Positions 1,118 through 53,171 of a stretch of 64,000 bases of DNA are shown one piece after another; position 1 is the stretch's first letter, and each line of letters opens with the position of its first letter. Source of the stretch: Candidatus Yanofskybacteria bacterium (GTDB lineage Bacteria; Patescibacteriota; Minisyncoccia; 2-02-FULL-40-12; GWA2-44-9); NCBI GenBank assembly GCA_003514055.1, contig DOSG01000008.1:45895-109894 (forward strand). The letters are read 5' to 3'. The translations under genes were made by a program, and so were the position numbers. Below the pieces are notes generated by a model that did no database searches, was not told the origin of the DNA, and saw only the letters and a list, made by a program, of their open reading frames with translations.

Positions 1118-1183
1118 AGCGCCCTCGAGTACTCAGACTAGATTATCACTACAATATTAATAATCAAGCGGGCTTGATCACAA

Positions 1184-1219
1184 TTACAAAGAGCGCCCCG
1201 AGAAGGGCGTTCTTTGTAA
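1184..1219. repeat. GC-rich palindromic mini-element, intergenic copy; also the terminator hairpin 13 nt downstream of ctpA
   Basis: TTACAAAGAGCGCCCC-GAGAA-GGGCGTTCTTTGTAA. Arms match the copies at 6933, 30017 and 52719. Confidence 0.6.
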
Positions 1220-1231
1220 TCTACTGAGTTA

Positions 1232-2506
1232 TTATCTTAACAATTCCAAAGCCTTGTCGAGCTGAGGATCTTTCCCTTTCTCGCCTATAACCAATGCTTC
1301 GAGTTCTTTTGGATCTTCCGGCAACATAACCTTGATATCGGCTTCAATCCCTTTTTCAGAAATCGATATACCATTAGGTGTCAGCCATTTGGCAATCGTA
1401 ACTTTTAACGATGAGCCGTCGGAAAAGTTTTCCAATTCTTGGACAGAACCCTTTCCAAACGACTTTTCGCCTACTAATTTTATTCCTCTATTATCATGCA
1501 GTGCTCCGGCTAAGATTTCTGATGCCGACGCTGATCCGCCATTCATCAATATCACCGTAGGTAATTTGAGCAAGCCGTTACCATTACTCTTGAATTCGTT
1601 TCTCGTACCATCGCCGAACTGCTCCATGACTACAATCTGACCTCTATTTAAGAACCACCCGGCCATATTTATGGCAGAATCCAACAACCCACCCGGATTA
1701 TTTCTCAAATCCAAGATTAGCCTAGTAGCCCCACTCTTTATTATATCTTGTGCTGCCTTGTTGAATTCAGATTCAACATTCTGATTGAAGGAGTATATCT
1801 GCATGTAGGCGATTTTATTACTACCCTCTTCAAAATATTTCAGATCGACTGTCGGAATCTTGATCGTATCTCTCGTTAATTCATAATCTCTTAATTCTCC
1901 ATTGGAAATCGACAATATAACTTTAGTTCCTTTCTTGCCACGAATCAAGTTTACCGCTTCATCCACGGACATTTCTTGGGTGCTTTTACCATTAATCTTA
2001 ACAACTTTATCTCCAGCTTTTATCCCAGCCTTATCGGCGGGAGTGCCTTTTAATGGAGAAACGACGGTTAAAACATTATTCTTTTTACTCAACTCTAGAC
2101 CAACACCGCCGAAAGATCCAGATATTTCTTCCTGGAATTTTTTGCTTTCAACAGGTTCAAAGAACGTAGTATAAGGATCTCCGGCGCTGTTCACCATACC
2201 CGCTATAGCACCGTAAAACATTTTTTCGTTACTAAGTTCACCCTTATCTACGTATTTCTCGTTTAATTTGTCCCACACCTGCCAAAAGAGTTCAAAATCA
2301 ATGTCTTTGTACTTAACCGCATCCTTATTTATCAGCCTAGCTACAACCGGTGAAGGTTCGTATTGGCCAATAAAATAACCGACTGCTAAGCCGATTAATA
2401 AGACGCCAACAAGCACTACTAAGCGCCACTTCGATTTAGTCCTAGATGCTTCTGGTTGTAATATTTGATTTTCTGATTCCATATTTTTTAAAATATTTGA
2501 TAGCAT
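1232..2506 (-). CDS. ctpA: carboxyl-terminal processing protease, S41 family with PDZ domain
   Basis: N-terminal TM; PDZ (GIKAGDKVVKINGKS); S41 catalytic block GGSASASEILAGAL and KGSVQ. Confidence 0.9.
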   Translation of the reverse strand: MLSNILKNMESENQILQPEASRTKSKWRLVVLVGVLLIGLAVGYFIGQYEPSPVVARLINKDAVKYKDIDFELFWQVWDKLNEKYVDKGELSNEKMFYGAIAGMVNSAGDPYTTFFEPVESKKFQEEISGSFGGVGLELSKKNNVLTVVSPLKGTPADKAGIKAGDKVVKINGKSTQEMSVDEAVNLIRGKKGTKVILSISNGELRDYELTRDTIKIPTVDLKYFEEGSNKIAYMQIYSFNQNVESEFNKAAQDIIKSGATRLILDLRNNPGGLLDSAINMAGWFLNRGQIVVMEQFGDGTRNEFKSNGNGLLKLPTVILMNGGSASASEILAGALHDNRGIKLVGEKSFGKGSVQELENFSDGSSLKVTIAKWLTPNGISISEKGIEADIKVMLPEDPKELEALVIGEKGKDPQLDKALELLR

Positions 2507-3260
2507 CTTTTATGTGCCATCTGGTTTCTTTTTTGAATAAAGCATCAAAGACATCGAAGCGACTCTTCGAACCTCTACGATGATAGTGATACATTTTAGA
2601 TTTAGGATAATAAATTACTCTGTATCCATTTTCCCAGAAGCGACGCGCCCAGTCAACATCACTCATATAGAGAAATAGATTTTCGTCCATTGAGCCAACT
2701 TTTTTTATAGCTTTTTTACTAACCATGATTGCTGAGCCCATCAACCAATCGGCATCAGTTTCTTTGAACAGATCGTGATCGTGCATTAAGAACTGCTCAA
2801 CTTCTTTTTTAAATAATCCTATTCTGCCGATAAAACTTCGACGATATATGGTAGTTAGTGGCGAATAGAATCTAAAGTATGAATCCTGATGACTGCCGTC
2901 AAAATTTAATAATTCCGGGCCGACTATGCCAATTTTAGGATCATCTTTAATCAATTCATACAAAGTCTCTACTGCACCTTCAAGCGGAATTATATCGGGA
3001 TTGATTACAAATACGTAATCGTTAACGCTGGCCTGAAGGCCAGCGTTAACGCCTTTGGTATAACCGATATTCTGGTCGAATGCCACTAATTTTATATCCT
3101 TAAACTCTTCATTGACGACATTCCGGGTCTCTATACTGCTGGCGATATCGATAACTATGATTTCGTATTTAAAATCTGCGCGAACAATACGTTTAAAAGA
3201 TTTCAAACACAGTCGTAATAGCGCCGGATTCTTATAATTGATGACGAGTATCGAAAGCAT
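2442..3260 (-). CDS. glycosyltransferase family 2
   Basis: N-terminal ILVINYKN...IIVIDIASS GT-A signature; start overlaps the LCP stop (TAATG coupling); its 3' end overlaps the ctpA start by about 40-65 nt. Confidence 0.85.
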   Translation of the reverse strand: MLSILVINYKNPALLRLCLKSFKRIVRADFKYEIIVIDIASSIETRNVVNEEFKDIKLVAFDQNIGYTKGVNAGLQASVNDYVFVINPDIIPLEGAVETLYELIKDDPKIGIVGPELLNFDGSHQDSYFRFYSPLTTIYRRSFIGRIGLFKKEVEQFLMHDHDLFKETDADWLMGSAIMVSKKAIKKVGSMDENLFLYMSDVDWARRFWENGYRVIYYPKSKMYHYHRRGSKSRFDVFDALFKKETRWHIKDAIKYFKKYGIRKSNITTRSI

Positions 3261-4300
3261 TAATTTAAAGTTTCAGCGAAAAACTTTTTAAATAAATCGA
3301 AATTCTCGCCATTTGGAAGTAACACGTAAATTGCATCGATGTATGTTTGATAAAGTAAATTCGCGGTGGAAATTACATATTCTTTGGGCATAGCCTTTTT
3401 CACTTGTTGATACAAGTTTATTAATTCCGACAAATTCCAAATATTCAAATCTGTTTTAATGTCGCTGCGAACGACACTTAGCATGCCAAAAGCTTTAAGA
3501 GGATCTGAGGTCAAATTAGCAGTCATGACTTTGTCTTTAATAGCCATTATAATTTCCTGTTGACGCCTAGACCTATCGAAATCGCTAGTTGAATACCTCG
3601 ATCGAGCGTAATAGAGCGCACCTTCACCATCGAGATGATTGAGCCCAGCCGGCAGATAGAAGCTATTCCCCCACTGGCTCTTCTCTTCAAATGGTTTGTC
3701 TAGGTATACGTCCACCCCATCTAGCTCGTCAACAATTTTCTTGAACGCTGTAAAATCAAAGACTATGGCATTATCTATATATATTCCAGTCATTATCGAA
3801 AATACTCTCTTTGTAAAATCTAGCCCCTCTTTGCGACTAAGTCCATATTCATAAACTTCGTTTATCTTGCCCATCTTGTACTTGTCGATTTTTATGTAAA
3901 GATCTCGTGGGATAGACACCAACGATGACTTTGCGGTGGTCTTGTCGTAACTAAAAAGCAAGATCGTGTCGGTTAACATACCGCCTTGAATCGCGTCCGG
4001 ATCGTCGAGACCACGCATGCCTAATATTAAGATGTCTAAACGATTTGGGTCAGGCTTTGGTGTCGGATCGGTAGATATTGCGGCTACCGGAAATGACAAA
4101 ATGGCCGAGACACGATTCCAGAAAGGAACACTACCATCACTGGTAATGACAATCTCGTTATAAGCTAAGCCCAACATTAAAGCTCCGTAGCTCAAGGCTA
4201 CTATGGCTATAATTGAAACGCCTAGACCAAGTATCTTCTTCTTACTTGGCTGATTATTATGTCCTACGGGGTCTATAAAATTCATTTCTTTATTATTCAT
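3260..4300 (-). CDS. LytR-CpsA-Psr (LCP) family cell-envelope glycopolymer ligase
   Basis: N-terminal TM, then LILGMRG...DTILLFSYD...SIPRDLY LCP-domain motifs. Confidence 0.85.
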   Translation of the reverse strand: MNNKEMNFIDPVGHNNQPSKKKILGLGVSIIAIVALSYGALMLGLAYNEIVITSDGSVPFWNRVSAILSFPVAAISTDPTPKPDPNRLDILILGMRGLDDPDAIQGGMLTDTILLFSYDKTTAKSSLVSIPRDLYIKIDKYKMGKINEVYEYGLSRKEGLDFTKRVFSIMTGIYIDNAIVFDFTAFKKIVDELDGVDVYLDKPFEEKSQWGNSFYLPAGLNHLDGEGALYYARSRYSTSDFDRSRRQQEIIMAIKDKVMTANLTSDPLKAFGMLSVVRSDIKTDLNIWNLSELINLYQQVKKAMPKEYVISTANLLYQTYIDAIYVLLPNGENFDLFKKFFAETLN

Positions 4301-5357
4301 ACCATTCGCGCATTCGAGCTGGCGCGGCTACAGCTCGTCTCATAATGGCATTTCTCTTCTTGAGCATTTTAGGAATATTTTTTAATACCACGCTAACCTC
4401 GCTTAAAACGGCTGGCTCATAGATAAGGAGGTAGGCCAGCATGGTTAATTCTCTTTTCGCTATATAAAAGAAGTCCTTGAGGCAATTTATTATATACTCA
4501 TTCTTGATCATTGTAAACCTAAGATTTTTCCATTCAAGCCGGCGCTTATTGAGCGGTATCTGCTGTCTACTTTTTCTGAATTCGGTGAAACCGCCAGACA
4601 ACGATTTTGTTGTCTGGCGATCATGCCAAGCCAAAACTCGTGGAGCATATATCTGCTTCCAGCCGAATAGGTTCATGCGCCACGCAATATCTAAATCCTC
4701 GGCATACCAAAAAAAATCGTGATCGAATATCTCTCCGGCACCTGACGGATTGATTTTGATTCTTAAACTAGCAAACGCTTCCTTTCTAAAAACAGGCACC
4801 GCACCTTCAACGCCGAATATCTCTTTCTGCGTGTTGTATTGGCCCGTGTCTTTCTCGCCATGGCCGATATTAACTATCCTCCTCGATTTGAATATTTTAA
4901 AACCACATGTGTCTATGACGTCGGTACCCAGCCTAAGATTACGACCTTTCAGCTGGTCCAAATCAAATCGGTAGACTTTGGCCTGAAGTGCACCAATATC
5001 GGCGCTTACTTCCATGACCCCCATCGCTTCAAGTAGAAAATTCTTATCTAATATCACGTCTACGGAAAGCACGACCACATATTTCCCAGCTGATATTTCA
5101 AACAACTTTTCCTGCCCAGCCCACATGCCTATGTTTTGTGAATTTTCAATAACTTGAGAATTCACAAAAGCTAATTCTCCAAGTTCTAATTGCCAGTCTT
5201 TGATTATTTTCTTTGTTCCATCGGTTGAATTATTATCCCAGATATTTAGCTCAATTAGATCATGCGGATAGTTCAAGTTCTTTATCGAATCCAAACAATG
5301 GCGAATATATTTTTCGCCATTAAAAACCACTAGATTTATTGAGATTCTACTTGACAT
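4293..5357 (-). CDS. glycosyltransferase family 2
   Basis: INLVVFNGEKYI...DNNSTDGT GT-A N-terminus; 8-nt overlap with the LCP start. Confidence 0.85.
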   Translation of the reverse strand: MSSRISINLVVFNGEKYIRHCLDSIKNLNYPHDLIELNIWDNNSTDGTKKIIKDWQLELGELAFVNSQVIENSQNIGMWAGQEKLFEISAGKYVVVLSVDVILDKNFLLEAMGVMEVSADIGALQAKVYRFDLDQLKGRNLRLGTDVIDTCGFKIFKSRRIVNIGHGEKDTGQYNTQKEIFGVEGAVPVFRKEAFASLRIKINPSGAGEIFDHDFFWYAEDLDIAWRMNLFGWKQIYAPRVLAWHDRQTTKSLSGGFTEFRKSRQQIPLNKRRLEWKNLRFTMIKNEYIINCLKDFFYIAKRELTMLAYLLIYEPAVLSEVSVVLKNIPKMLKKRNAIMRRAVAAPARMREWYE

Positions 5358-5411: not shown

Positions 5412-5723
5412 ATGGATGAGCTTACTCCAAGCCAAGAAATTATAAAGAACGATTTAATCGCACATTTCAAAGAAGACGCGACATCGTCACTGAATCAAGT
5501 AGTCAATTTTCTTGGTCAAAAGCAAACTTGGTATTGCATAAATTTCGACCATAGATATCTCAACTTTGCCAAGCAAGACATGATAATGGTGCTAAAATAT
5601 TTGATAGCCCAGAGTATATTGGAAATATCCGATTGGAGGACATCTCCCGATATGAATGCTACATTTGGATTTGTGCTGGAACCAGTTTTTTCTCTTTCCG
5701 AAACATTTCAAGCCCAGGCTTAG
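5412..5723 (+). CDS. hypothetical protein (103 aa)
   Basis: ORF track only; weak RBS; convergent 4-nt overlap with the Wzy-like gene. Confidence 0.3.
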   Translation: MDELTPSQEIIKNDLIAHFKEDATSSLNQVVNFLGQKQTWYCINFDHRYLNFAKQDMIMVLKYLIAQSILEISDWRTSPDMNATFGFVLEPVFSLSETFQAQA

Positions 5724-7285
5724 TCTGGGCCTTTGTTTACCAAAAGAGCGGCAGAAACGGCAAGCATAAGAAAGGCGCGTTCGTCGAATATAGCTACGTC
5801 AGTCATTAAGTAAGCGAAGACCCACGGAATGAATAATAGACTTGCACCATAATAAGTTGCCAGCGTGGTGTCCGCCTTAGAATCGATGAATTTTCTATAG
5901 ATTATTTTGAATAACTCAAACAAGAATGCACATAGCGCAATCAGGGCAAAAACGCCCATCTCCGCGGCTACGTGCAAATAAATATTATGCGCCGAAGATC
6001 CAGCCTTAGACAGTTTAATATCTTGAGACAACACGACTGGATAATTACCAATACCCACTCCCAACAATGGATGGTCCGCTATAGATACTAAACTTTTTTT
6101 CCAGATTTCTATTCTTTGAGCGTTAGAAGTCTCACCAAAATCTATGACTGATCTAATTCGATTACCAAGCATGCTCCAATCCCCTTTTGATAATAAAAAT
6201 TGAGGCGAAGTAAATATCGGATAGGCAACAAAGAACATCATAAAAAACAAAATTATGTAGCTAGAAATGAATTTAAAATAACTCACCTTAGTTTCTTTCT
6301 TAATCGTCATATAGATAATCACGCCGATAGCAAGCGCAACCACTCCCACACTCGCCGCCCAGAAACCTCTGGTGCCAGTTAAAATTACTGCTAGGAATAT
6401 TATCGGCACCCAAACCACGAATAGCTTAGTCCTTGTTTTAATCAAATCTTGGAATTTCGCACCAACATCCATTTTGCGCATAGTCCAAGCAAAAATAGCT
6501 GGCATACCCAGAAGCAGAAATATTGGGAAAGAATGAGAATCTGGAAAAAGAGAAAACATCCTCAACGAAAGTTGCTCTCCGTAGTAAGCGAACCAAGTAT
6601 TACCAACCCTCACGGCAATATCGCACCATTGCTGACCAAACTGATTGCATTGGATGTTCTCACCCCATATGCGCATGAATTGATAAATATCAATAAAGTA
6701 ACTTGAGGCCAATTGTAAAAAACCAATAATCGTAACTAGTAAAACCGGAATCGTTAAGGCTCGAATTAGTCGCTTCGAAAAATCGCTACTTCTCGTGGTT
6801 AGATAGTAAACTGGAAAGCCAACCAAGCTTAAATTAGTAAAATAGATAATTCTTTTGATAGCGGCCGCCTTATCCGAAGCCATGGACACTGAAAGTAACA
6901 TCAGCGCATAAAGTGCAACGAGAGCCATTGCGTACAAAGGGCGCCATTGTACAAAGGCGCCCTTTGTAAAGATTTTCGTGGTTTTAAGCCGGGACAAAAA
7001 CCATTTCACGAATAATATGACTGAGAATATCCTCCAAGAATTAAAGTTATCAAAGCTAGAACTGAATGGAATCGCCAAAAACATCGGGATTGAGGCCGCA
7101 AAAAATATTACTCCATCCTCCAGCGGTGCTAAGATCAAATACAAAGCTAACATGGCCACTAAATATAAAACGAATTCGCGAGGTATAAGACCAGAAATAA
7201 CCAGAAAGAAGCAGATAACCTCAGCCACGTAAACTATTCCGCCAGTTTTTTTATTATTTAACATTCTCAAAAAATGATTTAGCAA
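5720..7285 (-). CDS. O-antigen ligase/Wzy-like polytopic membrane protein
   Basis: More than 10 predicted TM helices; SSAHNIYLHVAAEMG motif typical of the Wzy_C / O-antigen ligase family. Confidence 0.75.
   Translation of the reverse strand: MLNHFLRMLNNKKTGGIVYVAEVICFFLVISGLIPREFVLYLVAMLALYLILAPLEDGVIFFAASIPMFLAIPFSSSFDNFNSWRIFSVILFVKWFLSRLKTTKIFTKGAFVQWRPLYAMALVALYALMLLSVSMASDKAAAIKRIIYFTNLSLVGFPVYYLTTRSSDFSKRLIRALTIPVLLVTIIGFLQLASSYFIDIYQFMRIWGENIQCNQFGQQWCDIAVRVGNTWFAYYGEQLSLRMFSLFPDSHSFPIFLLLGMPAIFAWTMRKMDVGAKFQDLIKTRTKLFVVWVPIIFLAVILTGTRGFWAASVGVVALAIGVIIYMTIKKETKVSYFKFISSYIILFFMMFFVAYPIFTSPQFLLSKGDWSMLGNRIRSVIDFGETSNAQRIEIWKKSLVSIADHPLLGVGIGNYPVVLSQDIKLSKAGSSAHNIYLHVAAEMGVFALIALCAFLFELFKIIYRKFIDSKADTTLATYYGASLLFIPWVFAYLMTDVAIFDERAFLMLAVSAALLVNKGPD
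6933..6969. repeat. GC-rich palindromic mini-element, in frame inside the Wzy-like CDS
   Basis: TACAAAGGGCGCC-ATTGTACAAA-GGCGCCCTTTGTAA. 12-bp perfect stem. Translated in frame as TKGAFVQWRPLY. Confidence 0.6.
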
Positions 7286-8666: not shown

Positions 8667-9608
8667 TTAATTTCCTATTTTGCCCATTTTATCTTTATAA
8701 AAATCGAATACTCCGTTTAGTATTGCCTGCGACCTTTCTTTTTCGATACCAAATATCAATTTGATTATCTGCTTTTTAATAATCCAGATGCTCCAGGGCC
8801 ACAATAATATTTGCACCCACCACGGACCAAATTTACGATTGAAATAAAGAGCGTTACGGTAATGATATCTCAACAGTAACGGAGACCCTAATTTTTTGGT
8901 TGAGGCCGATACCTTATGATTAATAGATACTCCTTCGGCTATGCCGATTGAAAACCCGGCTTGAGCCGCAGTCAATGATAAGTCGGCATCTTCAAAGTAC
9001 AGAAAATAGTCCTCATCCATTAGGCCAATCTTTTCAAACACATCACTAGATATGGCCGCGCCACCACCGATGGCGTAGATATTAGAAACACAATGGCCGC
9101 GTTGAATACAATGGCTGTCTTTTAGGCCGCAAAGACAGCCATTGTATTCAGGCGTATATATGTGTCCGAGGGTAGGCTTTAGCCACTTCACCAAGCCAGC
9201 ATAGGCCGTATGCCCACCCTCATCCAAAGGTATTGAAACTACCCCCCTTTTGAGCCTCAAAACGGCCTTTAGGCGAGCGATAAAGTCCTTTTCAGGTGTT
9301 GTATCGTTATTGATCAAAATCACCCATTTTGACCCTCCGGCCAAGGCCTTTTTTATGCCCACATTACACCCCCCAGAAAAGCCGAGGTTTTGACCATTTT
9401 TAATAACCACCAGGTTCTGCCAACCATGCTTTTTTTGATACTCATTGAGCCTATCTATGTCGGCCACGTTAGAACCATTCTCAACTACAATCAATTCGAA
9501 ATCAGAATCGGTTTGATTCTTAAATATATTTAGAAGATTAATCGTGTCTTCTGCTCCGTTATAATTTACAGTTACTATTGATATCTTCATCTTATCCATT
9601 AATACCAT
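8667..9608 (-). CDS. glycosyltransferase family 2
   Basis: KISIVTVNYNGAEDT...ELIVVENGS GT-A signature. Confidence 0.85.
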   Translation of the reverse strand: MVLMDKMKISIVTVNYNGAEDTINLLNIFKNQTDSDFELIVVENGSNVADIDRLNEYQKKHGWQNLVVIKNGQNLGFSGGCNVGIKKALAGGSKWVILINNDTTPEKDFIARLKAVLRLKRGVVSIPLDEGGHTAYAGLVKWLKPTLGHIYTPEYNGCLCGLKDSHCIQRGHCVSNIYAIGGGAAISSDVFEKIGLMDEDYFLYFEDADLSLTAAQAGFSIGIAEGVSINHKVSASTKKLGSPLLLRYHYRNALYFNRKFGPWWVQILLWPWSIWIIKKQIIKLIFGIEKERSQAILNGVFDFYKDKMGKIGN

Positions 9609-25563: not shown

Positions 25564-26850
25564 TTATCTCAAGGAGAACTTCTCAAATATGATATTTGAA
25601 CCTCTTAATCCGGCCGCCTTGAGTCCCGATACTAATGACTCAATCATTGGTATCGGGCCGCAGATATAAACCGTCCTTTCTTTATAGTCTTGAACTAATG
25701 CCTTGATTTTCTCAGGATCAAGTTGCCCCATCTTTTGTGATAAAAATTTAATTAGTCTCAGATTCTTGTATTCTGCAGCCAATAGATCAACCTCTTTCTC
25801 TAATACGATATTGCCTTCCTGGCGATTGCTATATATCAAGGCCACGTCCATATTATCTTTGATCATCTCTTCGGCCACGGCCTTAACCGGAGTAATGCCA
25901 ACTCCACCAGCAATTAAAAGAATCTTGCGATTTCCAGCTCTAGCAGTCGTAAAAACACCATTTGGACCATCAATAATGACTTTAGTACCAACTTTTAGCT
26001 CTCTAATTTTATTTGAATAATCACCTAGATTTTTAACGGTTATTCTTAAAAATTTGTCATTATGAATACTCGAAAACGAATACGGATGAGCTTCATACCA
26101 GAACCCTTCCTGAAGAAATCTGAATATCGCAAACTGTCCACCTTTAAACTCAAATCGCTTGAGATCTTTGCCTTGAATATATATGGAATGGGACTCCTCG
26201 GTATCTTTTTCTACTTTTTGGATTTCAAAACTATGTCTCCAAAAATAATAAATTGGCCTAGCGAATCTATACAAAATCAAATTACCAAAGGCAAATACAT
26301 ATAACACCCACCAAAAAACTACGAATAAACCGTTATCCCTAAAATCTCCGCCGAGTTCTAATTGATGCCCAAAAGCGAGGAGGATAGCTACGTAGAGTAG
26401 TAAATGCAGATAATACCAGATCTCATATTTTAATTTTTCTAACAATATTGGGATTAATATTCCAACAGCAATGATTATAATAGCCGCTATCGTTCCATTT
26501 AAAACGTCATCGCCGCCATTCAATCTAATGAAAGTTGCTACAAATCCAGAATCTCCAGACTTAGCTACGGTCAGCAAGATTGGGTGGGCTAAGAGCATGA
26601 CAAGAGTCCCAACTCCATTCCAATGATGGAAGCGAGCTAGTTTATCCATGCCAAAGATCTTTTCCAGCCAACCAGTTCGGCCAATAAGTACCAGTTGCAA
26701 CAACAACGAATAGACTAGGACTAAACCAGCCAGCCGGCCCATGGCGAGAGAAATATTGGAATCCATTAAAATCCAAGAATTCAGTGACCAGAAATAAACT
26801 ATCAGAACTAAGCCAATTAGTAGCAGCAGATAAGAAAATGTTTTATTCAT
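25564..26850 (-). CDS. ferric-reductase-like transmembrane heme domain fused to an FAD/NAD(P)-binding oxidoreductase domain (NOX/FRE family)
   Basis: Paired His in TM helices (HHWNG...LAHP; YYLHLLL...GHQL); HPYSFSS FAD motif; GGVGITP NAD motif. Confidence 0.75.
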   Translation of the reverse strand: MNKTFSYLLLLIGLVLIVYFWSLNSWILMDSNISLAMGRLAGLVLVYSLLLQLVLIGRTGWLEKIFGMDKLARFHHWNGVGTLVMLLAHPILLTVAKSGDSGFVATFIRLNGGDDVLNGTIAAIIIIAVGILIPILLEKLKYEIWYYLHLLLYVAILLAFGHQLELGGDFRDNGLFVVFWWVLYVFAFGNLILYRFARPIYYFWRHSFEIQKVEKDTEESHSIYIQGKDLKRFEFKGGQFAIFRFLQEGFWYEAHPYSFSSIHNDKFLRITVKNLGDYSNKIRELKVGTKVIIDGPNGVFTTARAGNRKILLIAGGVGITPVKAVAEEMIKDNMDVALIYSNRQEGNIVLEKEVDLLAAEYKNLRLIKFLSQKMGQLDPEKIKALVQDYKERTVYICGPIPMIESLVSGLKAAGLRGSNIIFEKFSLR

Positions 26851-28958: not shown

Positions 28959-31900
28959 ATTCCATCATTTTACGTAGCGCACAATATTCGCAGTCTTTTT
29001 CTTTGCATCCCTTATCCCAAAAATCCAGATTCATTATTTCTTGAGATGTTTTAATGACTAATTCTTTAAGTTCTACGACCTCATCGGACGTGACATAGAA
29101 ACTTTCTTTCTTATATCTCCCCTTCTCGTCCGGCTCTATGAAATCAATGTCACCCGATATCATTTTAAATTTCTTGCCTTCAGCATAATTATTCAATAAC
29201 AAATTGTAGAATACCAGCTGTCTTTTTATATCACCATTAGATGTTTGAGTAGTACCCTCAATTTCGCCACGAGTTTTCTGCCTACCAGTTTTATAATCAA
29301 CCACGTTCACCTCTCCCGAGTCATTCAGTATCTCAATTTTATCTATCTTACCAGTAATCCTAACGTCCGCGGCAACGACTATCCCTGGTATGTTGAATTC
29401 ATTCAAAAGATTAGCCCTCCAGTGACCAACGTAATTATCGTAATAACCAGAAAGCGATTTCTCTCCTTTCTGAAGCACTTCTTCAAAATCACTCTCCTTA
29501 AGGGGTTCTCTCTGTAAATATGTGACAAACTTACTCAATAGCATCTCTTTATTAGCTTCGCCTTCCTTGATTTTATCGAAGAAATCTTTGAGCGCACCGT
29601 GAATAGCTGTGCCATACATTTGATGCTTATCTTTGGCTTTTGGTATGCGTAACAGATTAGTATAGAAATACTGCCACGGACATCTTAGATAGTTGTTTAA
29701 GCCCGTAACTGATAACCCATTCTTAGTGAATAAGTCTTTTATGAATTCTTTGTCTTTTATACTTGTTCCAGATTTCACTTTTGGCGTAAACATAATTGTT
29801 CTGTCTCTTTCAAATCCATCTTCATACTCATCGGCAACGACGGTTTCTATGAGATCGGATTTAATCTCCTGGATAAATTGAGATGGTATCTGCTGCTTAC
29901 CGGAAAGTGCTTCCTGGGCATATGTAATTGTCACCAATTTCTTAGCTCGAGTTATGGCCACATAAAATAATCTCCTCTCGTCATCATTTCCATCATCATC
30001 TGCAAGATCCTTATCCTTACAAAGGGCGCCCCTGAGGGGCGCCCTTTGTAACCCAAGAGAATAGACCGAGGCAGGCAAAGACAACAGGTTAGTTCGCCTC
30101 TTATTACCCCAGTGGCCGTCAAAAGCATTCACTATATATACATATTCGAACTCCTGTCCTTTCGATCTGTGGGCGGTCATGAGTCTTATATTCTTTGTGC
30201 CCGATTGGCCTAAACTCTTTTTAATAAGTAGATTATGTATCTGAAGGGTGTCTATATATTTTATAAAATCGCGTAGATCGTAATCTTTGTGTTTCTCCAA
30301 CAATGACTTGATCTCGTTGAATAATCCATCCAATTTTTGCATCTTCTCAGCTACGTCCTTTTCTTTCATTATGTGAGCTAGAAAGCCAGACTCGTTTATC
30401 ATCAACTCGAAGAATTCCGATAAGCCCTGGTTTTTCTGAATCGTAGCCCACCCCGCTACTTTTTTATAGAAATCATGAATTTTATCGGCTGATTCGAGAT
30501 CAATACGCTCAAGATTCTTCTTATGTTTTACAATATCGTGTACGGGAATCTTTTCTTTGTTTGAATAGTTTATGATTTTGTATACGTCCAGCGGATCAAT
30601 ACCTAGAAAATCAATATGCATAGATTCGAGTATCCTAGCCTGAGATCCGAAATTATCCACCAGGCGCATTATCAGCATAAGCTTCTTAATATCGGGATCA
30701 GACAAAATATCCTGATCAGATTCTATAGCAAAAGGCACGTCAACTCTTTCAAGCATATCCGCAAAAGTAAAAACATCTTTATTGTCACGATACAGGATGG
30801 CAATCTCGGACGGCACAACGCCCTTAGAAATTAAATTCTTTATGCTTTTAGCCACGAAATACGCCTCAACTTTTGGCTTTGAAAAGGATAAAAGCCTTAT
30901 CTTTTCCTCTTCGTATCTCATATTAGCTTGTAGTTGCTTATCTCCGGCCAAGATACTATGGGCCGAATCTAGAATATTTTGAGTTGAGCGATAATTATCT
31001 TCCAAGACAATTAGTCTTGCCTTAGGATACAAATTCTTGAAATATAGAAAATTCTCTATAGATGCACCCTGGAATCTGAATATGGCCTGTTTCTCGTCGC
31101 CAACCACGAATATGTTTGGATTAGGATGGAAATTACAGAGTAGCTCCAGAACCTTATTCTGGGCATTATTTGTATCCTGGTGTTCGTCTACTAGCATGTA
31201 CTGGTGTTGCTCCTGCAATATCAATAAAAGATTCTGATTCTGACTGAGTTCTCGCAGAACCTCCATAATCATATCGCTATAGTCATACATCTTATTCTCA
31301 GCCAACTGCTTCTGATAAAATCCGTAGACCACGGCCAACTCCTTATTTTTTCGAATCTGCTTTTCAATTTTCTGATATTCACCCTTCATCTTACCCTTGT
31401 GTGCACCTTTCTCATGATAAAGATCGTCAATCGATGTAAAGTCTTTCTCCTCTTTCTCTACTAGCAGCTTAAATCCTTCCGGGCTAAGACCTTCGCGCTT
31501 AAGATCGTTTAAAGATTTCAAAATTTCTCGCGTGTAATAAAGCGGATCACCGAATGGCTTGAGATCCTTAAGAGGTAGGCCATCGATGGCTTTTTCGATG
31601 ATATTTATCTGATCAACTTCAGTAATATTCTGCGACCCAATGATTGCCGGAAATTCTTCGGGGTAATTTTTAATCACGTCATTGCAAAAACCATGAAAAG
31701 TACTTATCACCACCGAATATCCTGGAGTGCCAATAATCTCGACTAATCGTCTGCGCATTGAAGATACGCCAGATTCTGTGAATGTAAGCGCTAAAATATT
31801 TTCCGGTTCAGTATCGGTCTTCTTTAGTATATTAGCGATGCGCAAAGTCAAAATCTGGGTCTTGCCAGTTCCGGGTCCAGCCACCACCATCACAGGCCCA

Positions 31901-35193: not shown

Positions 35194-36115
35194 ATTTAAT
35201 ATAGAAAGTATAAGTTTTATAGGTTTCGAATTTATTGAAAAATTGAGTCTTAAATCTTAGCGCTTGAGAATCGCTACCCTCAAGATCACAACTCTTGTAT
35301 CCGGCATTTTTTATCCAAACTAAATCTTCATATAAAAGAGCCACTCCCAAATCTTTAATTGAGTAATCGTGAATACCGATACTCGCTGACCATTCGCTCG
35401 GGTTATTCGACGTCTCCCAACCAGCATTAAATCCTACCGGCTTGTTATCGACGATCATAACTCTCGAACTTTTCGTACCGCCAAAATTATTATCTATCAT
35501 GTCATGATAACGCTCAGGGAGAACCGCTATGCCTACTCTGGCACGGCTAGCGAACCATCGATCGACTATGTCGTGCAAATCTTTTTTGGATAACTCGCTC
35601 GTTTCCGAGATTTTGACCGCATGCTCACGATTAAATTTGCTAAGAGCATTTCGTAGTTCTTTAAAATGACTCCCCGGTAATTCTGGATTCCAAGTGGCCA
35701 TATCTACTACCGGCCAAACAATTTCATAGTCTGGTTTAAACTTATCTCTGTAATTTTTGATCGCGAAATCTTGCACGGACTCACGAACATCAAGAAAATA
35801 TATCGTCATACTCTGACCTAAAACATAATCGCACAATTCTTTCAAAATTTTGTCCTGGACATTCGTTGGAGCGATGGGATCGGCTACTATCACGTGCTGA
35901 TTAGTCTTTTTGTTTACATAAAACCAAACGCCTTCGCCGTCTTTCCAGACGACGAAGGCGGGGCTACCATCGTTCGAACAGCTCTTTAACCAATCAAAAT
36001 TGTGATCAGGCGAATATCCAAATTTACTTATCGAAGATTCGATAAGTTCTCTTTCTTCTTCTACGTTATCTATTATCCTCACGTCCCAAGAGTAACAAAA
36101 TATTTTTTTAACCAC
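35192..36115 (-). CDS. hypothetical protein (possible acyltransferase-fold / DUF2156-like; unverified)
   Basis: ORF track; divergent from the ATP-grasp gene across a 109-nt AT-rich spacer. Confidence 0.5.
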   Translation of the reverse strand: MVKKIFCYSWDVRIIDNVEEERELIESSISKFGYSPDHNFDWLKSCSNDGSPAFVVWKDGEGVWFYVNKKTNQHVIVADPIAPTNVQDKILKELCDYVLGQSMTIYFLDVRESVQDFAIKNYRDKFKPDYEIVWPVVDMATWNPELPGSHFKELRNALSKFNREHAVKISETSELSKKDLHDIVDRWFASRARVGIAVLPERYHDMIDNNFGGTKSSRVMIVDNKPVGFNAGWETSNNPSEWSASIGIHDYSIKDLGVALLYEDLVWIKNAGYKSCDLEGSDSQALRFKTQFFNKFETYKTYTFYIK

Positions 36116-52076: not shown

Positions 52077-53171
52077 TCACTTTATTACTCCTCCGCCAAG
52101 AAGAAGTTGTCCCCTGTAAAAAACTGCCGACTGGCCCGAAGTTATAGCTCTAACTGGTTTATCGAATTCTAAATTACCATCATCAGATAAAATGGCTTTT
52201 TCCGATTTAGTTCTGTATCTTATTTTAACGTCAATTCGTGCTGGTAATTTAATTGGACCATTGACCCAGCTGAGATTGCTCACGACCGTCTTCGTTGACT
52301 TGAGATCTTTCTCGCTTCCAACGTAAATAATATTTTTCTCTACGTCTTTTCCGATTACATAAAATGGACCATCTCCAGATTTAATATCTAACCCATGACG
52401 CTGGCCGATAGTATAGTAGAAAACACCATCGTGAGTTCCAATGGCTTGGCCATCTTTTATTATCTCGCCTTTTTTCGATTTTATTCTTTTCAGCAAGAAA
52501 TCTTTCACGTTTAATGGTCCGATGAAACAGACTCCTTGGCTATCCTTCTTCCCCGCATTCGGCAATTTAAATTTTTTGGCTAGTTTCCTTATTTCTGGCT
52601 TAGTATATCCTCCCACCGGGAATAAGCACCTTTCTATCTCTTTTTCTTTCAGAGTCCATAAAAAATAAGACTGGTCCTTGTTCTTATCTTTGCCCTGATA
52701 AAGATAAGAACCGCAAGAAACAAAGGGCGCCTTTTTGGCCCCAAAGGCGCCCTTTGTGATTTTTCTTACATAGTGTCCGGTAGCGATGAAATCCGCGCCC
52801 TCACTCAATGCTCTTTTCAAGAATAAGCCGAATTTAATCTCCTTGTTGCACATTACGTCAGGATTCGGAGTCCGACCAAGCTTATATTCTCTGATCATGT
52901 AATCGGCAACTTGTTTTTTATATTCCTTAGTAAAATCCCAGGTCTTAAATGGTATATTCAGACTAGCCGCGGCCTTCGCGGCTTCTTCGCGTTCTTCTTT
53001 CCATATACAAAAATCACCGACATCGGGTTGCCATTGTTTCATAAAAACTCCGACCACTTTATGGCCTTCTTGCTTGAGCAGTGCCGCAGCCACAGAACTA
53101 TCCACTCCACCGCTCATGGCCACATAAACCAGCTTTTTGTTGTTCTCTGCTAATCTTGACATAATAGTCAA
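52077..53171 (-). CDS. mnmA: tRNA 2-thiouridine(34) synthase MnmA
   Basis: PP-loop VAMSGGVDSSV; KDQSYFL motif. Confidence 0.9.
   Translation of the reverse strand: MTIMSRLAENNKKLVYVAMSGGVDSSVAAALLKQEGHKVVGVFMKQWQPDVGDFCIWKEEREEAAKAAASLNIPFKTWDFTKEYKKQVADYMIREYKLGRTPNPDVMCNKEIKFGLFLKRALSEGADFIATGHYVRKITKGAFGAKKAPFVSCGSYLYQGKDKNKDQSYFLWTLKEKEIERCLFPVGGYTKPEIRKLAKKFKLPNAGKKDSQGVCFIGPLNVKDFLLKRIKSKKGEIIKDGQAIGTHDGVFYYTIGQRHGLDIKSGDGPFYVIGKDVEKNIIYVGSEKDLKSTKTVVSNLSWVNGPIKLPARIDVKIRYRTKSEKAILSDDGNLEFDKPVRAITSGQSAVFYRGQLLLGGGVIK
52719..52757. repeat. GC-rich palindromic mini-element, in frame inside mnmA
   Basis: AACAAAGGGCGCC-TTTTTGGCCCCAAA-GGCGCCCTTTGT, translated as ITKGAFGAKKAPFV. Confidence 0.6.

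Follow-up and report, generated by a model that had tools for sequence, protein, structure and literature searches.

Short palindromes translated in frame in genes of a Candidatus Yanofskybacteria bacterium, and their probable place among the REP elements of RAYT transposases

The window analyzed here is a stretch of 64,000 nucleotides from the genome of a Candidatus Yanofskybacteria bacterium (contig DOSG01000008.1), which belongs to the Patescibacteria, or candidate phyla radiation (CPR). The gene for a UvrD-type helicase-nuclease in this window contains a GC-rich palindrome, one member of a family of palindromic mini-elements that are dispersed in this genome. The family appears to be of the repetitive extragenic palindromic (REP) type that goes with REP-associated tyrosine transposases (RAYT, also TnpA-REP), and a probability of roughly 0.78 is assigned to this reading. 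The first-pass annotation of the same DNA had compared the palindrome with the Rickettsia palindromic elements (RPEs). The REP/RAYT family is preferred to them because related contigs have this palindrome on either side of a gene for a RAYT-like Y1 transposase. The feature is real and its explanation is largely ordinary. Its main peculiarity is the frequency with which it is translated.

In the helicase gene, the copy reads TTACAAAGGGCGCCCCTGAGGGGCGCCCTTTGTAA and is perfectly palindromic, with arms of 17 nt about one central base. As had been described, it is 35 nt long and is read in frame. It is translated without a stop codon as LQRAPLRGALCK, that is LQRAPLRGALC(K), within an open reading frame (ORF) of 1008 residues. 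The same arms had been reported at three further sites, and they are present at each of them, with coordinates that were right to within 1 nt (Table 1). The arms common to all four hairpins are ACAAAG[G/A]GCGCC and GGCG[C/T][C/T]CTTTGT. The exact 12-mer ACAAAGRGCGCC occurs seven times in the window against 0.02 expected from shuffled sequences, and none of 100 shuffles reached seven. This count excludes chance as the origin of the repeated arms and bears out the dispersed family that had been proposed. Folded as RNA, the copies range from -24 to -35 kcal/mol (z -4.3 to -6.7), and no shuffle was as stable; the copy in the helicase gene lies at -34.7 kcal/mol (z -6.7). The hairpins are 47-60% GC and the window is about 41% GC. 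An Rfam search of the window returned four tRNAs only. A fifth copy was found in the same genome, about 6 kb outside the window (L147:18388-18421, ACAAAGGGCGCCTTTGTACAAAGGCGCCCTTTGT), among a total of about 18 kb of DNA that was fetched past both window ends. This copy is intergenic. Five copies of 34-38 nt are now known in about 82 kb of one genome, in keeping with the multi-copy nature of REPs, and the earlier proviso that further copies might be missing from the genome no longer applies.

Table 1. Hairpins of the window with the helicase-nuclease gene, and RAYT-like genes of related contigs flanked by cognate palindromes. Positions in the first nine rows are those of the window.
Feature	Position	Strand	Sequence	Context	Encoded residues or domains
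UvrD-type helicase fused to PD-(D/E)XK nuclease, 1008 aa	28957..31983	-		intact	Pfam UvrD-helicase, UvrD_C, PDDEXK_1
Type B hairpin (16-17 bp stem, 1-3 nt loop)	30017..30051			in frame in UvrD-nuclease gene	
Type A hairpin, 36-nt doublet form	6933..6968		TACAAAGGGCGCCaTTGTACAAAGGCGCCCTTTGTA	in frame in Wzy_C/O-antigen-polymerase-like ORF 5720-7285(-)	FTKGAFVQWRPLY
Type C hairpin (15-nt arms, 8-nt GGCC-containing loop)	52720..52757			in frame in mnmA 52077-53171(-)	TKGAFGAKKAPFV
Intergenic hairpin	1183..1220		ATTACAAAGAGCGCCCC-GAGAA-GGGCGTTCTTTGTAAT	12 nt past stop of S41 peptidase gene 1232-2506(-)	
Hairpin of a second, related family, 48-nt perfect	9103..9150		TGAATACAATGGCTGTCTTT-TAGGCCGC-AAAGACAGCCATTGTATTCA	in frame in GT2 glycosyltransferase ORF 8667-9608(-)	PEYNGCLCGLKDSHCIQ
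Further strong hairpin	3020-3051			in GT2 protein	GVNAGLQASVND
Further strong hairpin	25625-25657			in ferric-reductase-like protein	GPIPMIESLVSG
Further strong hairpins	35929-35960; 4590-4621; 5134-5169			inside ORFs	
Transposase P0242, 71% identical to P0241	L144, gene 4076-4711		TACAAAGGTGCCCTTTGTACAAAGGGCACCTTTGTA	palindrome on both sides	
Transposase P0246	L143 (a Yanofskybacteria assembly)		TTACAATGGGCATCTTTGCAA...TTGCAAAGATGCCCATTGTAA	palindrome on both sides	
Transposase P0380, 54% identical to P0241	L155 (another Yanofskybacteria bin)		TTACATGGGCACCATGCAAATTTGCATGGTGCCCATGTAA	palindrome on both sides	

The connection to a transposase is found in related contigs. In one of them (L129), the identical 36-nt palindrome lies on both sides of an ORF of 211 residues (P0241), 14 nt upstream and 43 nt downstream. 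The product of this ORF matches Pfam Y1_Tnp with 36 bits (cut-off 23), and its best and sole NCBIfam match is REP_Tyr_transpos (E 2e-14). It possesses the HUH motif NHFHLL and the tyrosine motif YIHQNP (Y-x-H-x-N-P), which are invariant in 51 homologues. A fold search was carried out with an AlphaFold model of this type of transposase (pLDDT 86). The best PDB match was 4ER8_A (E 1.4e-7), the REP-associated tyrosine transposase of E. coli in complex with a REP hairpin, and it was followed by the TnpA proteins of the insertion sequences (IS) ISDra2, IS608, and IS200. The Pfam and NCBIfam matches, the motifs, and the fold together identify the Y1 HUH enzyme as RAYT-type, as opposed to an IS200 TnpA.

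Other contigs repeat this arrangement. In L142, a RAYT homologue that is 48% identical has the element on both sides and a further copy in frame inside its own gene (gene 602-1255 on the minus strand, hairpin 1083-1116), where it accounts for the extra residues GVQRRPLQRAP relative to four homologues. L129 and L142 carry the same element as the window, and L144, L143, and L155 carry cognate variants of it (Table 1). The head TTACA...TGTAA is constant in all five types of palindrome that flank RAYT genes, and the core is variable. The cores change compensatorily along with the protein (GGGCGCC, GGTGCCC/GGGCACC, TGGGCATC, and TGGGCACC). RAYT homologues are numerous in Patescibacteria. The first-pass annotation had stated that no comparable family was known for CPR-like genomes. 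A literature search for REP, RAYT, or palindromic insertions in Patescibacteria or the CPR found nothing relevant, and to that extent the statement holds, but some of the homologues already carry the label 'REP element-mobilizing transposase RayT' in the annotations of the Joint Genome Institute (JGI). In L144 and in L153/L154/L155, where the RAYTs are 71% and 54% identical to P0241, a gene for a TPR protein of about 800 residues follows immediately downstream of the one for the RAYT. The occurrence of this neighbourhood in diverged contigs hints at a vertically inherited, conserved locus, as has been described for RAYTs.

The residues that the palindrome encodes can be compared with those of homologous proteins. 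The helicase-nuclease was aligned with 119 homologues that are 54-66% identical to it. It has exactly 12 extra amino acids relative to its nearest homologues, directly ahead of helicase motif VI (DERRLFYVAxTRA). Without the encoded segment, the protein has the length of these homologues, and about 110 of the 119 have nothing at the site. The structures of PcrA, Rep, and UvrD also show no counterpart of the insert between the motif V region and motif VI. For MnmA, the alignment with the E. coli protein (2DER) leaves an 11-residue gap in 2DER exactly at KGAFGAKKAPF. The AlphaFold model of MnmA places the inserted segment as a coil between two strands with a pLDDT of about 53, compared with a mean of 91. 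The minimal form of this loop, with 12 residues, is found in 53 of 120 Paceibacteria homologues (P0121-P0240). In the Wzy-like protein, the loop that holds the element varies in length in all homologues, and an insertion is not resolvable there; the loop appears to separate two hydrophobic segments. The view that the copies are in-frame insertions is thus upheld for UvrD and MnmA, where most homologues are missing the residues, and for the Wzy-like protein only in that the copy is read in frame. It had been asked whether orthologs without a palindrome might encode the same residues, and most UvrD and MnmA homologues do not.

All three host ORFs are intact, are of full length, and match their families from end to end, and pseudogenes or fusions split by the hairpin are therefore ruled out. 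The palindrome is free of stop codons in five of its six frames, the exception being a terminal TAA in one frame. The three host genes use different frames and consequently add different peptides (TKGAF..APFV, LQRAP..GALC, and ..RPLY), which argues against selection for one particular peptide. The MnmA, UvrD, Wzy-like, and GT2 proteins of the window are identical or near-identical to those of Candidatus Yanofskybacteria GW2011_GWF1_44_227 and its sister bins (Paceibacteria). The counterpart of the helicase-nuclease in GW2011_GWF1_44_227 is named UvrD/REP helicase.

The element also occurs beyond this genome. A metagenome scan with a pattern extended by TA gave 20 loci, and about 10 of these are low-GC contigs with the same 34-36-nt element. 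Some of these copies are intergenic, and others are in frame in unrelated genes, such as those for a TPR-containing protein (L131) and a long hydrophobic protein (L134/L135). In a genome scan with the loose arm pattern and one genome per species, at least 120 matches were obtained (L001-L120), nearly all of them single and from unrelated bacteria, mostly of high GC content. These palindromes have the shape of a two-way terminator, with an A-run, a GC stem, and a T-run, and are otherwise without similarity to the window. They are read here as terminators, from their shape alone. The arm sequence ACAAAGGGCGCC...GGCGCCCTTTGT occurs in this single, terminator-shaped form in those unrelated bacteria and in two phage contigs. 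Among viral contigs, only these two high-GC look-alikes were found (L156 and L157), and they are without a RAYT. The arm sequence itself is not lineage-specific. Its repetition within this genome and its siting inside genes are the unusual part.

A mechanism can be proposed by analogy with the biochemistry of E. coli TnpA-REP and of IS608/ISDra2 (PMC3479197, PMC6006769). A RAYT would bind the element once it has folded into a hairpin in single-stranded DNA, and the likeliest source of this substrate would be the lagging-strand template at the replication fork. The enzyme would read the short head beside the foot of the stem, with TTACA...TGTAA in the role of the proteobacterial GTAG tag. The catalytic tyrosine could then cut and rejoin the strand so that the hairpin is copied or moved without duplication of the target site. 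No direct repeats were found beside the window copies or the L147 copy, as expected for Y1 enzymes. A RAYT may have mobilized the window copies in this single-strand manner, with selection as a filter of frame and site. The genome has very little intergenic space, and it is proposed that many insertions therefore land in genes. Those that survive there would have a length that is a multiple of three, be open in the frame used, and fall in a loop that tolerates 11-13 extra residues. The copies in UvrD, MnmA, and probably the Wzy-like protein could be such survivors. The copy behind the S41 peptidase gene would be of the ordinary extragenic kind.

Several observations weigh against placing the family with REP/RAYT. 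The REP_Tyr_transpos score of the L129 ORF is 53.5 bits, below the curated cut-off of 80 for that model. Searches of PDB by sequence, with the RAYT alone and with a profile of 51 sequences, gave no true match, and 4ER8 was reached by fold search only. The head tag is mostly GTAA and not the canonical GTAG; GTAG is seen in the L131, L143, and L144 copies, GTGA in the mnmA copy, and GTAT in others. No RAYT gene was detected by tblastn in the 64-kb window, nor was one found in the DNA fetched beyond its ends, and the copies known from about 82 kb of the source genome number only five. Matches to so short a pattern are in themselves weak evidence of homology, because the same arms occur in unrelated bacteria. 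Every member of the 90% clusters for UvrD, MnmA, Wzy, and GT2 carries the encoded segment, and no presence/absence polymorphism was seen among them. The mnmA copy is present at the same site and with the same arms in an orthologue from L121 whose protein is 82% identical, and the DNA that flanks it there is 84-85% identical to the window. From this cluster-wide presence and the copy held in common with the L121 relative, it follows that the window copies are old and fixed.

REPs are non-autonomous hairpins tied to an HUH/Y1 enzyme of single-stranded DNA, the RAYT. REP and REPIN (REP doublet) systems with their RAYTs are well described in Proteobacteria and in some other phyla (PMC3116915, PMC5581495, PMC6006769), and the closest to the present family are those of E. 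coli, Pseudomonas, and Stenotrophomonas (Nunvar 2010; Bertels and Rainey 2011, PMC3116915; Ton-Hoang 2012; Messing 2012, PMC3479197; Di Nocera 2013, PMC3733652). The likeness is found in many traits. The palindromes are short (20-40 nt) and dispersed in the genome, with a conserved short head at the foot of the stem. The same palindromes stand on both sides of a Y1 HUH gene in related contigs, in the manner of a 'REPtron', and the fold of its product is closest to 4ER8. There is no target duplication, the extragenic copy lies just past a stop codon, and occasional copies are in frame, UvrD/Rep helicases included. The commonest form of the element can be viewed as a doublet, head to head, whose halves fold together into a single long hairpin, much like a minimal REPIN. 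However, the doublet is without a spacer and measures 34-36 nt, compared with about 100 nt for REPINs. The enzyme has about 206-214 residues and scores under the NCBIfam cut-off for RAYTs. The head reads GTAA in place of GTAG, and the host phylum, Patescibacteria, is not listed in the surveys that were consulted.

Location is a further point of difference. The literature places REPINs 'almost exclusively in extragenic space', and three of the five known copies here are in frame inside ORFs. REPs inside genes are nevertheless on record. Many of them lie in replication and repair genes, with UvrD/REP helicase explicitly included, and REPs within genes, in-frame ones among them, form a recognized minority (Di Nocera et al. 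2013, PMC3733652). Because they are already in the literature, such insertions are not new in kind. What appears to be new is the host lineage, the GTAA head, the compact doublet without a spacer, and the high intragenic share (3/5).

Elements of the IS200/IS605 group, such as IS608 and ISDra2, belong to the same Y1 HUH superfamily, recognize hairpins on single-stranded DNA, and leave no target duplication. They insert beside a short, defined sequence, which is TTAC for IS608. In contrast to the palindromes described here, the end hairpins of these elements are subterminal and differ from each other, and their TnpA has about 130-155 residues. Here the flanking palindromes are identical, the protein has about 210 residues with a conserved C-terminal W-S-S-Y region, and its fold is a better match to RAYT. 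The GC clusters of yeast mitochondria, and hairpin elements of other fungal mitochondria, are also GC-rich palindromes of about 30-40 nt in an AT-richer genome and occasionally lie in coding sequence. They belong to a different domain of life and are not known to involve a RAYT, and their likeness to the element of Patescibacteria is one of analogy only.

The Rickettsia elements RPE-1 to RPE-8 are likewise palindromic repeats in a small, reduced genome that are inserted in frame and add a peptide to otherwise normal proteins, and the copies in UvrD and MnmA show the same behaviour, with the ORF left intact. The elements could then be selfish hairpins of the RPE kind that spread into ORFs by a route free of RAYT, and the palindromes beside RAYT genes would be further insertions. 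The in-frame habit is as described for RPEs (PMC3733652), no RAYT lies in the window or its flanks, and a copy rides as a passenger in the RAYT gene of L142. However, five independent RAYT-like genes have a matched pair of palindromes within 0-50 nt of the ORF, with a core that covaries with the protein, and chance insertion fails as an account of such pairs. RPE-1 is described as a longer insertion and no dedicated transposase is known for it, whereas the copies here have 34-38 nt, a GTAA tag, and a link to RAYT. By length and by host, which is not a Rickettsia, they are set apart from the RPEs. The two categories also overlap, since RPE-4 and RPE-6 of R. conorii have been classed as REPs of the CGTC type with no dedicated transposase apparent (PMC3733652). 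The original analogy was a reasonable one for these reasons, with REP/RAYT being the closest family, and a spread independent of RAYT is considered improbable.

The hairpins inside genes could also be kept because they are useful, as an mRNA stabilizer, a translation pause, a protein-binding site, or a peptide, and not merely tolerated. Such a role would be consistent with an origin as REPs. Fixation of the copies in the species fits this reading, and the mnmA copy provides a hint of constraint. Its two 12-nt arm cores are identical in the window and in L121, with the loop diverged, and all eight third codon positions of the arms are unchanged, compared with 69% identity at third positions elsewhere in the gene (chance about 0.05). 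This conservation at synonymous sites is a weak hint that the stem is under constraint, as it is marginal and comes from one sequence pair. The encoded peptides differ with the reading frame, most homologues manage without the insertion, and a disordered loop is predicted for the added segment. There is accordingly only a small chance that usefulness is what maintains the intragenic hairpins.

It is slightly harder still to see the hairpins as non-mobile, whether terminator-like or structural, that arose at each site by convergence on a favoured form of A-run, GC stem, and T-run or by the template-switch 'perfection' of quasi-palindromes. The 1183 copy is placed where a terminator would be, and it alone is flagged as terminator-like in the direction of its gene. 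The same arms recur singly and terminator-shaped in the unrelated genomes mentioned above, and the window is rich in strong hairpins, at least two of which appear to lie in native motifs as discussed below. Against this, neither the 6933 nor the 30017 copy is flagged, the one at 52720 is flagged on the antisense strand only, and the genic copies lack the T-run after the stem, in the sense direction and at the end of a unit, that marks an intrinsic terminator. The other terminator-like hairpins of the window all differ in stem, and these have arms of 12-17 nt in common, far beyond the chance expectation given above. Compared with homologues, the genic copies add residues, and the identical 34-36-nt sequence recurs elsewhere: other organisms have it within unrelated genes and next to genes for RAYTs.

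A miniature inverted-repeat transposable element (MITE) made of two terminal inverted repeats and moved by a DDE transposase, for example of the IS630/Tc1 type with a TA target, is suggested by several copies that are bounded by TA...TA (TTACAAAG...CTTTGTAA) as if by a TA duplication, but it is very unlikely: TA is absent from the mnmA and L147 copies and belongs to the conserved palindromic head in every copy that flanks a RAYT, the inverted repeats have no flanking direct repeats, the 36-nt insert in UvrD is a misfit for a 35-nt palindrome plus a 2-nt duplication, and the sole transposase-type gene found beside the element in the fetched contigs, among the neighbours that were screened, encodes a Y1 enzyme.

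Nearly all work on REP/RAYT systems has concerned Proteobacteria. Membership in the REP/RAYT family would extend the host range of these systems to an ultra-small CPR genome in which most of the visible copies lie inside essential genes, for a DNA repair helicase and a tRNA thiolase. It would also offer a concrete, testable origin for some insertions in CPR proteins that are as yet unexplained, and the insertions provide a natural map of the loops that tolerate them. In annotation, the encoded peptides may be mistaken for lineage-specific features of the protein.

Other insertions at the same sites were explored in homologous genes. The MnmA loop between TGHY and D..KDQSYF is a hotspot, and 67 of the 120 Paceibacteria homologues have 4-43 additional residues there, in unrelated segments. 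Four of these inserts were examined as DNA, in the window, L121 (1494-1733), L122 (368-547), and L151 (mnmA 6001-7128), and all four are GC-rich hairpins that differ in sequence. In addition to the element of the window, the L121 gene has a second hairpin, ACAAAGACTGTCTTT...AAAGACAGTCTTTGT. The loop of UvrD that holds the element has 20-35 extra residues in other lineages too (P0007; also P0006, P0008, P0087, and P0095). In P0007 (L152:2910-6002), this is a 72-nt, GC-rich insert with multiple stems (DNA fold z -5.3) that is unrelated in sequence to the element of the window. These cases suggest that protein insertions in this group may quite generally stem from hairpin elements. It is possible, and on present evidence doubtful, that coding sequence is the main niche of REP/RAYT elements in Patescibacteria and that they are a general source of lineage-specific peptide insertions there, or, in a stronger version that draws on the unchanged synonymous positions of the arms, that the hairpins are kept for a function in DNA or RNA.

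A second, related family of hairpins is represented in the window by the one at 9103-9150. With arms of TGAATACAATGGCTGTCTTT and a loop of TAGGCCGC, it folds with -36 kcal/mol (z -7.8). Its TACAA head and its build are like those of the palindromes that flank the RAYT gene of L143 and of the further hairpin that the mnmA of L121 carries. All members of the 90% cluster of the GT2 protein have it. The window has 20 strong hairpins in total, against 0.8 expected from shuffles, and nine are inside ORFs. Five further strong hairpins within ORFs are included in Table 1. At least two of them, at 3020-3051 and 25625-25657, encode what we take to be native protein motifs and not insertions. Since these two appear to be native, palindromes seem also to arise, or to be favoured, in place.

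Hairpins of this kind can break contigs in an assembly. In an assembly of the same species (GCA_003509745.1), one run of N is inside the intergenic REP copy (L148:14979-14982), and another (L148:4569-4571) falls at a 35-nt stretch that matches positions 4489-4523 of the window. The differences in L148 look like trouble in assembly or scaffolding and not like real polymorphism. The GC skew is negative along nearly the whole window and most of the long ORFs are on the minus strand, which is consistent with one replichore. The elements are perfect palindromes, and for this reason the skew gives them no orientation.

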